NCBI RefSeq assembly: GCF_056712565.1
Contig: NZ_CM160072.1
Strand: one strand, 5' to 3'
DNA: 64,000 nt
Position 1 is the stretch's first letter; each line of letters begins with the position of its first letter. The translations under genes were made by a program, and so were the position numbers. The notes beneath the pieces are model-generated. The model ran no database searches. It saw only the letters and a program-made list of their open reading frames with translations, and was not told the DNA's origin. Shown here one piece after another: positions 2,708-8,625 of the stretch.

Positions 2708-2857
2708 TCTTACATAGGATTCTGAAAACGGGTGGCAATGGCTGCCCGTTTTTATTTTCTCCGCACATTGTGTGAGCTTTTGCGATATTCTGAAAAAATG
2801 AGAATTCAGGCATAACGCCTTTCTCAGATCATAAAAAACATCGCAAACAGGGAACGC

Positions 2858-4507
2858 ATGGAAATCTTCTTCACCATACTGATAATGACCCTCGTGGTCT
2901 CGCTGTCCGGGGTGGTCACTCGTGTCATGCCCTTTCAGATCCCGCTTCCGCTTATGCAAATCGCCATCGGTGCGCTACTGGCGTGGCCGACGTTTGGTTT
3001 GCATGTGGAGTTTGATCCTGAACTCTTTTTAGTCTTGTTTATCCCGCCGTTGCTGTTCGCTGATGGCTGGAAAACGCCGACCCGTGAATTTCTCGAACAT
3101 GGGCGAGAGATTTTCGGCCTCGCGCTGGCGCTGGTGGTGGTCACCGTGGTCGGCATTGGCTTCCTTATTTACTGGGTGGTGCCGGGCATTCCGCTGATCC
3201 CCGCCTTTGCGCTGGCTGCGGTGCTTTCTCCGACCGATGCTGTAGCGCTCTCCGGGATTGTTGGCGAGGGGCGCATCCCGAAAAAAATCATGGGCATTTT
3301 GCAGGGCGAAGCGTTGATGAATGACGCCTCCGGCCTGGTGTCGTTGAAGTTTGCCGTGGCAGTGGCGATGGGGACAATGATCTTCACCGTCGGCGGTGCG
3401 ACGGTCGAATTTATGAAAGTGGCAATAGGCGGTATTCTCGCCGGTTTTGTGGTGAGCTGGCTGTATGGTCGCTCGCTGCGATTCCTCAGCCGCTGGGGCG
3501 GTGATGAACCCGCGACGCAGATCGTTCTGCTGTTCTTGCTGCCATTCGCTTCTTATCTGATTGCGGAACATATTGGCGTTTCCGGCATCCTCGCTGCGGT
3601 TGCCGCCGGGATGACCATCACCCGCTCCGGTGTGATGCGCCGTGCGCCGCTGGCAATGCGCCTGCGCGCAAACAGCACCTGGGCGATGCTGGAATTTGTC
3701 TTTAACGGCATGGTGTTCCTGCTGTTAGGTCTGCAGTTGCCGGGGATTCTGGAGACGTCGCTGATGGCGGCAGAAATCGACCCTAACGTCGAAATCTGGA
3801 TGCTGTTTACCGATATTATTCTGATATATGCGGCGCTGATGCTGGTCCGTTTCGGCTGGCTGTGGACGATGAAAAAGTTCAGCAACCGCTTCCTGAAGAA
3901 GAAGCCGATGGAGTTTGGTTCGTGGACTACACGAGAAATCCTGATCGCGTCTTTCGCCGGGGTGCGTGGGGCGATCACTCTGGCCGGTGTGCTCTCTATC
4001 CCGCTTCTCTTGCCGGATGGTAACGTCTTCCCTGCGCGCTATGAGTTGGTGTTCCTGGCGGCTGGCGTCATTCTCTTCTCATTGTTTGTCGGCGTGGTGA
4101 TGTTGCCTATTCTGCTACAACACATAGAAGTCGCGGACCATTCGCAACAATTGAAAGAGGAACGTATTGCACGAGCGGCAACGGCAGAAGTGGCGATTGT
4201 GGCGATCCAGAAAATGGAGGAGCGTCTGGCGGCGGATACCGAAGAGAATATCGATAACCAGCTGCTCACAGAGGTTAGTTCTCGCGTCATTGGTAACCTG
4301 CGTCGTCGCGCCGATGGACGTAATGATGTAGAAAGTTCAATCCTGGAAGAGAACCTGGAGCGTCGCTTCCGTCTGGCGGCATTGCGTTCTGAACGTGCTG
4401 AACTGTACCACCTGCGCGCCACGCGGGAGATCAGTAACGAAACGCTGCAAAAATTACTGCACGATCTCGATTTGCTTGAAGCGTTGCTGATTGAGGAAAA
4501 TCAGTAA
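2858..4507 (+). CDS. yjcE: Putative Na+/H+ exchanger, CPA1 family
   Basis: 549-aa membrane ORF with a charged C-terminal cytoplasmic domain; synteny. Confidence 0.85.
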   Translation: MEIFFTILIMTLVVSLSGVVTRVMPFQIPLPLMQIAIGALLAWPTFGLHVEFDPELFLVLFIPPLLFADGWKTPTREFLEHGREIFGLALALVVVTVVGIGFLIYWVVPGIPLIPAFALAAVLSPTDAVALSGIVGEGRIPKKIMGILQGEALMNDASGLVSLKFAVAVAMGTMIFTVGGATVEFMKVAIGGILAGFVVSWLYGRSLRFLSRWGGDEPATQIVLLFLLPFASYLIAEHIGVSGILAAVAAGMTITRSGVMRRAPLAMRLRANSTWAMLEFVFNGMVFLLLGLQLPGILETSLMAAEIDPNVEIWMLFTDIILIYAALMLVRFGWLWTMKKFSNRFLKKKPMEFGSWTTREILIASFAGVRGAITLAGVLSIPLLLPDGNVFPARYELVFLAAGVILFSLFVGVVMLPILLQHIEVADHSQQLKEERIARAATAEVAIVAIQKMEERLAADTEENIDNQLLTEVSSRVIGNLRRRADGRNDVESSILEENLERRFRLAALRSERAELYHLRATREISNETLQKLLHDLDLLEALLIEENQ

Positions 4508-4516
4508 TCTGCATGG

Positions 4517-4536
4517 TTGGCGGGCGAGCCCGCCAA
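4517..4536. terminator. Hairpin TTGGCGGGC-GAG-GCCCGCCAA between the convergent yjcE and LysR-type genes
   Basis: Perfect 9-bp GC-rich stem with 3-nt loop; no long U-tract on either side. Confidence 0.45.
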
Positions 4537-4542
4537 CCCGAC

Positions 4543-5427
4543 TTACTCTGGCGTTAACCAGTATCCTTCACAACAGCTCAGCCACGCGTGGGCAGAGTGG
4601 GAAAGGTAAACGCCCTCACGCCAAATCATTCCTAATTTCCAGCTTAGTTCGCTTTCCAGCGGTAGCCATTTTAAGGTGTTTTTATCTAATCGCTGGCAAA
4701 TGGGTTCCGGCAATATGGCTATTCCGACACCGGCCTGAACCATCGCGGCGAGAAAATCCCATTGCCCGCTGCGAACTGCAATTCTCGGCTTAACGCCATG
4801 TTCATCGAATAACTTCATCAATTGCTTACTTAAGGCAAAATCTTCGTTATAGATAAGTAGAGGATGTTCCGCCAATGTCTCCGGTGAGACGGCATCACAT
4901 TCAAGCCATTTACCTGAATGTGGCGTCAGTACACATAGTGGATGACTAAACAGCGATAACGTTGTCAGGCCGCTTTCTTCTACTGGCAGGGCTGTCAGTG
5001 CCATATCCAGTTCACCGTTCATCACCGCTTGTTGTACCGTCAGACCACCAAACTCCGAAATTTTCAATTCTACGCCGGGGTAACGCTGGCGAAAAAGGCC
5101 AATCGGCCCGGCCATCAACATCCCAACCATCGGCGGGATTCCCAGCCGCAAAACGCCGGTTTTAAGCTGATTGATATCGCTAAGCTCAGCTTCCAGTTGC
5201 CGAAACTCAGCCAGTAAAGCCAGCCCGCGCTCAAATACGACGCGACCAGTATCAGTGAGAAGCAGCCGACGACCATCGCGGATCAACAATATACAGTTCA
5301 GCTCATCTTCGAGATTCTTCAGCATCTTGCTGATAGTTGGTTGGGTGACAAACAACTTCTCCGCTGCGCGGGTGAAGCTTTGCTGGCGCACGACTTCGAC
5401 AAAATAACGCAGCGTTCTGATATCCAT
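4543..5427 (-). CDS. LysR-family transcriptional regulator
   Basis: 294-aa ORF; N-terminal MDIRTLRYFVEVVRQQSFTRAAEKLFVTQPTISKMLKNLE is a typical LysR helix-turn-helix; divergent from the LrgA-like gene. Confidence 0.85.
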   Translation of the reverse strand: MDIRTLRYFVEVVRQQSFTRAAEKLFVTQPTISKMLKNLEDELNCILLIRDGRRLLLTDTGRVVFERGLALLAEFRQLEAELSDINQLKTGVLRLGIPPMVGMLMAGPIGLFRQRYPGVELKISEFGGLTVQQAVMNGELDMALTALPVEESGLTTLSLFSHPLCVLTPHSGKWLECDAVSPETLAEHPLLIYNEDFALSKQLMKLFDEHGVKPRIAVRSGQWDFLAAMVQAGVGIAILPEPICQRLDKNTLKWLPLESELSWKLGMIWREGVYLSHSAHAWLSCCEGYWLTPE

Positions 5428-5530
5428 AACTATTCCCTTTGACTATACCTGCAATGATTTTAATTCATTTCAGTCAGGGGCGAGCGCTCTCTATACTTAC
5501 CATTCTGTTTTATTTTCAGGATATCCTCTC

Positions 5531-5941
5531 ATGCCCGTGGCGCTTCGCCGCATTACCCCTGCCGTAGTGCAATCTATCCAGGTATTTTTTCAGGTTGTGC
5601 TGTATGCAGGTTTATTTATTTTTGCGCAGTATCTCGTCTCCTGGCTGCATTTGCCGCTGCCTGCCAACCTGGTGGGGATGATCCTGATGCTGGCGCTGAT
5701 TGTTTGTCGCATTCTTCCTCTGCAATGGGTTCGAGCCGGGGCGCGTTGGCTATTGGCCGAAATGTTGCTGTTTTTTGTCCCTGCCGTGGTGGCTGTGGTG
5801 AACTATGCACAACTATTACTGGTGGATGGCTGGCGTATTTTTGCTGTGATCGCGCTGAGTACGGTGATGGTGCTGGGCACGACTGCCTGGGTAGTGGAAA
5901 AAGTCTATCGCTATGAAATGCGCAGGTTAAACCGTGGCTAA
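5531..5941 (+). CDS. LrgA/CidA-family small membrane protein
   Basis: 136-aa ORF with about four hydrophobic segments; ATGGCTAA overlap with the downstream LrgB-like gene. Confidence 0.75.
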   Translation: MPVALRRITPAVVQSIQVFFQVVLYAGLFIFAQYLVSWLHLPLPANLVGMILMLALIVCRILPLQWVRAGARWLLAEMLLFFVPAVVAVVNYAQLLLVDGWRIFAVIALSTVMVLGTTAWVVEKVYRYEMRRLNRG

Positions 5942-6623
5942 TTTTCAGCTAAGTATGCTCTGTCTGGCAATTACGCTAGTTATCTATTTTCTTAACAAAC
6001 GCCTTTATCGCCGCTTTCGTAAATTGCCATTGATGCCTCTGGTGCTGACGCCTACGCTACTGGTTATGCTGCTGGTTTTTGGCAATATTTCCTGGCAAAA
6101 CTATATTGGCGAAGCGCACGGGTTACTATGGCTATTAGGTCCGGCCACCATCGCCTTTGCGGTACCAGTGTATGACAATCGGGCGATCATTAAGCGTCAC
6201 TGGATGTCGTTGACGGCAGGCGTACTGACGGCAACGGTGGTGGCAGTGACCAGCTCAGTGTGGCTGGCGCGATTGTTTACCCTGCCAGATGAGATCCAGC
6301 GTAGCCTGGCGGTGCGTTCGGTCACTACGCCATTTGCTTTGGCAGCGAGCCAGTCGCTCGGCGGACAGCCTGATCTGGTGGCGCTGTTTGTGGTGGTCAC
6401 CGGTGTGTTTGGCATGGCGATTGGCGACGTGTTGTTTTTACGTCTCTCTATTCGCGAAGGGATGGCGAAAGGTGCTGGATTCGGCGCGGCATCTCATGGT
6501 GCCGGGACTGCGCGGTCATATGAACTGGGTCAACAAGAAGGCGTAGTTGCAAGCCTGGTCATGATGCTTTCAGGTGTATTGATGGTATTGGTTTCGCCGC
6601 TGGTGGCCAGGATGATGTTCTGA
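5934..6623 (+). CDS. LrgB/CidB-family membrane protein
   Basis: 229-aa polytopic membrane ORF, overlaps the LrgA-like stop by 8 nt (translational coupling). Confidence 0.75.
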   Translation: MANFQLSMLCLAITLVIYFLNKRLYRRFRKLPLMPLVLTPTLLVMLLVFGNISWQNYIGEAHGLLWLLGPATIAFAVPVYDNRAIIKRHWMSLTAGVLTATVVAVTSSVWLARLFTLPDEIQRSLAVRSVTTPFALAASQSLGGQPDLVALFVVVTGVFGMAIGDVLFLRLSIREGMAKGAGFGAASHGAGTARSYELGQQEGVVASLVMMLSGVLMVLVSPLVARMMF

Positions 6624-6661
6624 AGAAATTCCCCGATCAAGCGACCGGGGAAGGGGAGAGA

Positions 6662-8625
<1,964 letters not shown>

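Follow-up and report, generated by a model that had tools for sequence, protein, structure and literature searches.

The DNA analyzed here is a stretch of 64,000 nucleotides (nt) of Escherichia coli, referred to as the window, and all coordinates are positions of the window. Its sequence is identical to that of the type strain, E. coli ATCC 11775. A three-gene module occupies 4543-6623, between yjcE and actP. It consists of a gene on the minus strand for a CidR-like LysR-type transcriptional regulator of 294 amino acids (aa) (4543-5427) and, divergently on the plus strand, a gene for a small LrgA/CidA-family membrane protein of 136 aa (lrgA, 5531-5941) and a gene with a GTG start for a polytopic LrgB/CidB-family membrane protein of 229 aa (lrgB, 5934-6623). 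The two membrane protein reading frames overlap by 8 nt (5934-5941), which suggests translational coupling. An earlier reading of this DNA made from the sequence alone (the sequence-only reading) had described the same layout, and its open reading frames (ORFs) proved exact; the RefSeq annotation of the type strain also gives the same three coding sequences. The module is an uncharacterised member of known protein families, and it is notable mainly because E. coli K-12 lacks it while most enteric bacteria and the carrier lineage of E. coli retain it.

The three proteins were assigned by comparing the translated ORFs with Pfam, and the family memberships proposed in the sequence-only reading held for all three. 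The regulator has an N-terminal HTH_1 domain (PF00126, 5.1e-22, residues 3-62) and a C-terminal LysR substrate-binding domain (PF03466, 2.2e-44, residues 87-286), the two domains expected of a LysR-type protein. The LrgA-like protein matches PF03788 over its full length (9.1e-26, model positions 3-94 of 94). Four Kyte-Doolittle hydrophobic segments (residues 12-30, 41-59, 73-91 and 96-114) give it the four-helix layout of the family, and its C-terminal tail is basic. The LrgB-like protein also matches its family over the full length (PF04172, 5.5e-68, model positions 1-213 of 214), and its gene lies directly 3' of an LrgA-family gene, as is expected of an LrgB-family member.

The proteins were further compared with the NCBIfam models. 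The best model for the regulator is CidR (NF047520, 286.2 bits), about 130 bits ahead of the next one, CynR (157 bits), and below the CidR equivalog cut-off of 415 bits. The LrgA-like protein scores best with the generic CidA/LrgA subfamily model NF002460 (80.7 bits) and stays under the equivalog cut-offs of YohJ (NF002494, 54.3 vs 124 bits) and LrgA (NF003155, 47.2 vs 136 bits). Similarly, the LrgB-like protein scores 182 bits with TIGR00659 (cut-off 249.7 bits), 138.3 bits with YohK (NF007983, cut-off 267 bits) and 128.6 bits with LrgB (NF003291, cut-off 264 bits). A sequence search for solved structures related to LrgB returned none, even at E <= 1, and a predicted model of medium confidence suggests a fold match to secondary transporters.

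The module was also compared with YohJK, the other LrgA/LrgB-family pair of E. coli, as the sequence-only reading had recommended. The two pairs share the same two Pfam families, the two-gene order, the overlapping frames and the host species. However, identity is only 34% between YohJ and the LrgA-like protein and 35% between YohK and the LrgB-like protein, and genuine YohJ and YohK score 219.5 and 466.1 bits on their own NCBIfam models. The yohJK genes belong to the core genome (5,424 of the 5,426 complete E. coli genomes have them), lie at another site next to dusC and cdd, and have no LysR gene alongside; their reported regulator is YieP (PMC7642389). Since yohJK is nearly universal at a separate locus, strains with the module carry two old paralogous pairs. 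A copy or allele of yohJK is ruled out by the low identity, the scores below the cut-offs and the separate core yohJK. The two membrane proteins are LrgA- and LrgB-family members distinct from both YohJK and the staphylococcal LrgAB.

The history of the site was followed across species. A first blastn search, run against plasmid records, matched chromosomal segments of three genera, and the three-gene unit was found in Citrobacter freundii, Salmonella sp. and Klebsiella pneumoniae with 73-78% DNA identity and at the same site downstream of yjcE. A species scan, in which the LrgB protein was compared with one genome per species and ten E. coli flank proteins were located by tblastn, gave 80 loci. 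The order ghxP-yjcE-lysR<>lrgA-lrgB-actP-yjcH-acs was present in about 75 of them. Among the Enterobacteriaceae, the genera with this order include Citrobacter, Enterobacter, Klebsiella, Raoultella, Kluyvera, Kosakonia, Leclercia, Lelliottia, Buttiauxella, Trabulsiella, Franconibacter, Pluralibacter and Mangrovibacter, and it was also found in Salmonella enterica subsp. arizonae; the yjcE-module-actP order extends to the Erwiniaceae Winslowiella and Mixta. Contigs that carry LrgA variants labelled by the source as E. ruysiae and E. whittamii show this order too, and the spacing is identical; their identity to the window is 92-94% in the module and 91-97% in the flanks.

The divergence and composition of the module agree with those of its surroundings. 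Against Citrobacter, Salmonella and Klebsiella, the synonymous divergence (dS) of the module genes is about 1 or higher, with lysR saturated, and that of the flanks is 0.8-1.1. The GC content is 51.5% in the module and 53.2% in the window, and no flanking repeats or mobility genes were found around the module. The synteny in about 75 of the 80 species, the divergence equal to that of the flanks and the native GC content indicate that the three-gene unit was already present between yjcE and actP in the ancestor of the Enterobacteriaceae, and the same three observations, with the lack of flanking repeats and mobility genes, rule out horizontal acquisition or insertion of the module. The ratio of nonsynonymous to synonymous divergence (dN/dS) is 0.035-0.13 where computable (lrgB, 0.035-0.13; lysR, 0.04 against Salmonella). 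Over four genera, the alignment columns of the control region between the divergent genes are on average 86% identical, compared with 70-81% nucleotide identity for the three coding genes. Purifying selection acts on the control region as well as on all three genes.

Several side observations concern the same segment. The region from soxS to nrfA also occurs on records labelled as plasmids, namely C. freundii "unnamed2" (425 kb), E. coli p009_C (94 kb) and Salmonella pPJT1-452kb, which is typed IncHI2A and conjugative. Either plasmids have captured chromosomal DNA or these records were misassembled or mislabelled; K. pneumoniae CP125156.1, at 5.37 Mb, is plainly chromosomal. In several genera, such as Kluyvera and Kosakonia, an additional 1.4-4.6 kb separates lrgB from actP, and loci of Klebsiella and Pseudocitrobacter are without actP at the site, with fimbrial genes there in Klebsiella. 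This indicates that the lrgB-actP junction is a recurrent insertion point.

Within E. coli, 5,426 complete genomes were surveyed, and three states of the site, summing to 5,413 genomes, were distinguished. The module is carried by 1,035 genomes (about 19%), all at an identity of at least 99%; the site is empty in 264, and yjcF/espX5 occupies it in 4,114. The module is thus strain-variable, as had been supposed, being deleted or replaced in 4,391 of the genomes (about 80%). Where any part of it is found, at least 80% of the module is kept at an identity of at least 99% (1,035 of 1,037 genomes). Named carriers of the module include UTI89, 536, ABU 83972, Nissle 1917, O25b:H4-ST131, APEC O1:K1:H7 and the type strain, and named carriers of the empty site include SMS-3-5 and a strain of sequence type ST648. 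From the strain names, we take the former to belong to phylogroup B2 and the latter to phylogroup F.

In the K-12-like allele, 1.6 kb of DNA with 33.9% GC runs from the yjcE stop codon to the actP hairpin (locus-extract 3209-4831). Comparison with this allele bore out the statement in the sequence-only reading that K-12 has yjcF at this position. In RefSeq, yjcF is often named espX5, "T3SS effector pentapeptide repeat protein". Its GC content at third codon positions (GC3) is 0.32, and its NCBIfam matches are weak (HetL, 72 bits; PipB2, 42 bits). YjcF/espX5 is a foreign AT-rich gene that displaces the native module in most E. coli. The description of the module as inserted next to the acetate uptake operon is consequently reversed: the module is ancestral and syntenic and survives in one E. 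coli lineage, and yjcF/espX5 is the foreign replacement.

The empty allele, as found in E. coli CUVET19-1993, has 81 bp between yjcE and actP (locus-extract 3209-3289). The hairpin in this spacer, aaaaggtgca...tgcaccttt, resembles the yjcE terminator of the K-12/yjcF allele, which indicates that the empty allele is related to the yjcF allele and not to the module allele. Two further strains are rare secondary losses within the carrier lineage. In the uropathogenic strain 536, a frameshift has made the LysR gene a pseudogene (locus-extract 1484-2279) and lrgAB is intact, with 96% of the module query matched. In strain FP4, a near-total deletion has left about the last 220 bp of lrgB.

The edges of the variable segment are marked by short spacers and hairpins. 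To the left of the module lie soxR (347-811), ghxP (1358-2707) and yjcE (2858-4507) in the ORF list; to the right lie actP (6662-8311, minus strand), yjcH and acs (both minus strand) and then nrfA. The convergent stop codons of yjcE and lysR are 35 nt apart, and this spacer contains a GC-rich hairpin, GGTTGGCGGGC-GA-GCCCGCCAACC (4515-4538), which is probably a bidirectional terminator as read from the sequence. It was missed by the terminator scan because it has no T-run. On the other side, the stop codons of the convergent lrgB and actP are separated by 38 nt, and the scan called the hairpin TTCCCCGATCAAGCGACCGGGGAA between them (6629-6652, minus strand scan) as the actP terminator. In the comparison of the window with the K-12-like allele, homology ends just past the yjcE stop codon (4507) and returns at this actP hairpin. 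The hairpin is also found 3' of yjcF in the K-12-like allele, and being common to both alleles it gives the right edge of the variable segment.

The divergent control region is 103 bp long (5428-5530) and was examined in an alignment over four genera and in a footprint of 81 orthologous intergenic sequences. Two blocks, ATGATTTTAATTCATTTC and TCTATACT, are each at least 95% conserved in the 81 regions. The first contains a dyad, ATGATTTTAATTCAT (5454-5468), with the arrangement ATGA-N7-TCAT. The dyad is likewise at least 95% conserved and holds a T-N11-A motif, the typical LysR-box pattern, so that the pattern expected in front of a LysR-type regulator gene is present as sequence in the control region. 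The dyad is a candidate binding site of the regulator. It has one exact copy in the window, where 0.1 matches with up to two mismatches would be expected. A near-copy with two mismatches, GTGTTTTTAATTCAT (41751-41765), lies in the divergent alsR(rpiR)-rpiB intergenic region and was judged to be probably a chance match because its left half-site is lost. A CRP site in the control region was considered and rejected, since the TGA-N7-TCA spacing read from the sequence is unlike the N6 spacing of CRP sites.

The second block contains the hexamer TATACT (5492-5497, plus strand), which lies within CTCTCTATACT and may serve as the -10 element of the promoter of the lrgA-lrgB operon. The hexamer is invariant across the four genera and is kept in the 81 sequences and in Aeromonas. 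At the -35 position, 17 bp upstream, the sequence TTCAGT is a poor match, and a scan of the 103-bp region for consensus sigma-70 promoters called nothing, which fits an activator-dependent promoter. A conserved AGGA (5518-5521, plus strand) is a candidate Shine-Dalgarno sequence.

The regulator and the membrane protein pair were also found together outside the Enterobacterales. The same three-gene unit, at 54-59% protein identity, occurs in Aeromonas caviae, where lrgA and lrgB again overlap by 8 nt. The control region of this unit retains AATTCATTT, the right half of the dyad, as well as CTCTCTATACT, and the 23-nt distance to the -10 element is unchanged. A scan of 1.84 billion representative proteins yielded 2,931 LrgB relatives, and the genomic context was looked up for eight full-length relatives with 41-60% identity, of which seven gave informative contexts. 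A divergent LysR gene stands beside the LrgAB genes in four of the seven. CidR is the best model for these four metagenomic LysR partners (219-282 bits) and also for the partners in Aeromonas (284 bits) and Salinivibrio (278 bits). The pairing of regulator and transporter is therefore old and recurrent, being present in the Enterobacterales, Aeromonas, Salinivibrio and more distant lineages. The parallel with CidR-cidAB that the sequence-only reading had drawn is supported by these results, as CidR is the best model for the window regulator (286 vs 157 bits) and likewise for its counterparts in Aeromonas, Salinivibrio and the four distant lineages.

Some of these loci have features of their own. 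In Salinivibrio kushneri, a hipA/HTH (helix-turn-helix) pair resembling a toxin-antitoxin system is inserted between the LysR gene and lrgA (locus-extract 2781-4830), and the 23-bp sequence AATCATGCCATTTTGGCATAGTT, which holds a perfect palindrome, is duplicated on both sides of the insert. AATCATGCCATTTTGGCATAGTT is probably the LysR operator. A 60%-identical LrgAB pair (Logan SRR29828246, 2803-8362) lies between yjcE and acs, without LysR, actP or yjcH and followed by a YfaZ-family gene, and this locus is an intermediate architecture. A 42%-identical pair (Logan SRR32022553, 2378-4449) is located directly downstream of a D-2-hydroxyacid dehydrogenase gene in the same direction, a hint that the substrates in that lineage are hydroxy- or oxo-acids. 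Another distant pair follows a MIP channel gene.

The arrangement resembles that of characterised Cid and Lrg systems. In Staphylococcus aureus as well as in Bacillus subtilis, a LysR-type regulator is divergent from a cidA-cidB-type pair (PMC4462622), and in CidR-cidABC, YwbI-ywbHG and the module alike the LysR gene is followed divergently by an LrgA/CidA-family gene and an LrgB/CidB-family gene. CidR is moreover the best curated model for the module regulator, although the 286 bits fall short of the equivalog cut-off of 415. The staphylococcal and bacillar systems are Gram-positive, whereas the host of the module is Gram-negative. In B. subtilis, ywcBA, which is homologous to yjcH-actP, is found five genes away from ywbI-ywbHG (PMC4462622); this neighbourhood, known from the literature, echoes the enterobacterial one and is the sole parallel outside the Enterobacterales. 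The LrgAB and PftAB (YsbAB) pairs of the Firmicutes belong to the same protein families as the module and include members with direct evidence of pyruvate (and lactate) transport (PMC12632267, PMC6790026, PMC8805020). They differ in being under two-component control of the LytS/LytR type, whereas the module has a LysR regulator, and no kinase or response-regulator genes were found between soxR and nrfA. The module proteins also stay under the LrgA (47 vs 136 bits) and LrgB (129 vs 264 bits) cut-offs.

The experimental record of these relatives concerns both transport and induction. The S. aureus LrgAB imports 14C-pyruvate and rescues growth on lactate and on pyruvate (PMC12632267, PMC8805020), and the Streptococcus mutans LrgAB is a pyruvate uptake system (PMC6790026). 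The E. coli YohJK lowers intracellular 3-hydroxypropionate (PMC7642389). The B. subtilis ywbHG is induced by acetate via the CidR homologue YwbI (PMC4462622), and under overflow conditions cidABC and alsSD are activated by the S. aureus CidR (PMC9204165).

By analogy with these systems, the most likely function of the module, and one that we consider fairly probable, is that of a two-subunit carrier for small carboxylic acids whose expression is driven by a metabolite-activated LysR switch. The regulator would bind the ATGA-N7-TCAT dyad conserved in the 103-bp control region and would probably repress its own promoter there. As in the case of CidR and YwbI, the inducer would be a small carbon-overflow metabolite, for instance acetate, pyruvate or a similar weak acid. 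The induced regulator would then activate the lrgA promoter with its conserved TATACT -10 element and weak -35 position. Binding, autoregulation and activation are proposed here on account of the conservation of the control region and the general behaviour of the LysR family. LrgA and LrgB, co-translated through the 8-nt overlap, would form a two-subunit carrier in the inner membrane. This carrier may move small monocarboxylic acids, with pyruvate or lactate the most likely substrates and acetate, glycolate and 3-hydroxypropionate possible ones. Transport is the better reading because of the experiments in other organisms (PMC12632267, PMC6790026, PMC7642389) and not because of gene position.

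Several points weigh against this proposal. Experiments on the module in any enterobacterium were not found in the literature, and the databases give generic names only. The substrate, the direction of transport and the inducer are extrapolated from proteins that are at most about 35% identical (YohJK) or are related through family models. All three module proteins are under the equivalog cut-offs for CidR, CidB/LrgB, YohJK and LrgAB, so functional equivalence is not established. A third gene like cidC, which encodes pyruvate oxidase, is not present in the module operon, as the stop codons of lrgB and actP are only 38 nt apart. Genuine holin-like pore activity has been shown for the S. aureus CidA and LrgA (PMC8805020). 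The loss from about 80% of E. coli, together with the frameshift in 536, indicates that the module is dispensable in many niches. Finally, neighbours of the yjcH/actP type (DUF485/SSF) occur in none of the seven informative distant LrgAB contexts.

The last point bears on the role in overflow-metabolite traffic that the sequence-only reading had derived from the position beside acs-yjcH-actP. Transport stood as the better reading, while the positional argument proved weak, because the position is inherited synteny and did not recur in the seven distant contexts. The adjacency to actP and the acetate genes is synteny confined to the Enterobacterales, and as the linkage is not recurrent, gene position is not used here as functional evidence. 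An acetate- or pyruvate-responsive overflow valve that works specifically with ActP-YjcH-Acs, for example as a missing route for the excretion or re-capture of pyruvate or acetate, is considered rather improbable.

Other functions have to be weighed against the LysR-controlled carrier. An exporter that detoxifies a specific hydroxy- or oxo-acid, with no overflow product as substrate and no tie to acetate, is unlikely. The paralogue YohJK acts like an exporter of 3-hydroxypropionate (PMC7642389), a 2-hydroxyacid dehydrogenase gene stands immediately upstream of one distant relative, and the actP linkage does not recur in distant lineages, all of which would suit such an exporter. However, the module regulator is CidR-like, and the characterised CidR and YwbI respond to acetate or excess glucose; YohJK is just 34-35% identical and reportedly under a different regulator, YieP (PMC7642389); and the yjcE-module-actP order is kept across two bacterial families. 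A holin/antiholin-like cell-death module appears less likely still. In such a module, LrgA pores would control the access of murein hydrolase and hence lysis, for example for the release of extracellular DNA in biofilms, LrgB would modulate them, and the LysR regulator would switch the genes on under acid or overflow stress. Such a role is in line with the endolysin-dependent lysis supported by the S. aureus CidA and LrgA, which make liposomes leaky (PMC8805020), with the small four-helix, basic-tail layout that the LrgA-like protein shares with its family, with the names of the best-matching NCBIfam models (holin-like or autolysis modulator) and with the altered biofilm timing on overexpression of the B. 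subtilis ywbHG (PMC4462622). Against it, no endolysin or murein hydrolase genes were found in the roughly 6 kb flanking the module on each side, whether in E. coli or at the orthologous loci, and direct transport assays exist for family members; LrgB, the larger and better conserved protein, is fold-matched to secondary transporters in the medium-confidence predicted model. The holin and transport functions are not mutually exclusive.

It is most improbable that the module is a dispensable relic in E. coli, kept intact through recent common descent of its carriers and contributing nothing measurable. The absence from 4,391 of 5,426 genomes, the regulator frameshift in 536 and the near-total deletion in FP4 are what such a relic would leave. 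However, nearly all genomes with any part of the module (1,035 of 1,037) keep at least 80% of it at an identity of at least 99%, and other Escherichia species retain it intact with identical spacing. The dN/dS of 0.035-0.13 and a control region conserved above the coding genes (four genera, 81 species) show long-term function.

For the protein families themselves, present knowledge is unchanged by this locus; the gain would be the substrate and the inducer of an uncharacterised branch. The site is a clean three-state polymorphism that tracks lineages, and it could be used to study the displacement of a native metabolic module. If the doubtful coupling to ActP-YjcH-Acs were true, the loss from K-12 and most E. 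coli and the retention in phylogroup B2, rich in extraintestinal pathogenic E. coli, would explain differences between lineages in overflow metabolism and in urine or gut fitness. K-12, the reference for E. coli physiology, is without a regulator-transporter unit carried by most Enterobacteriaceae, and studies of acetate and pyruvate overflow that use K-12 may therefore overlook one carrier along with one metabolite-sensing regulator.

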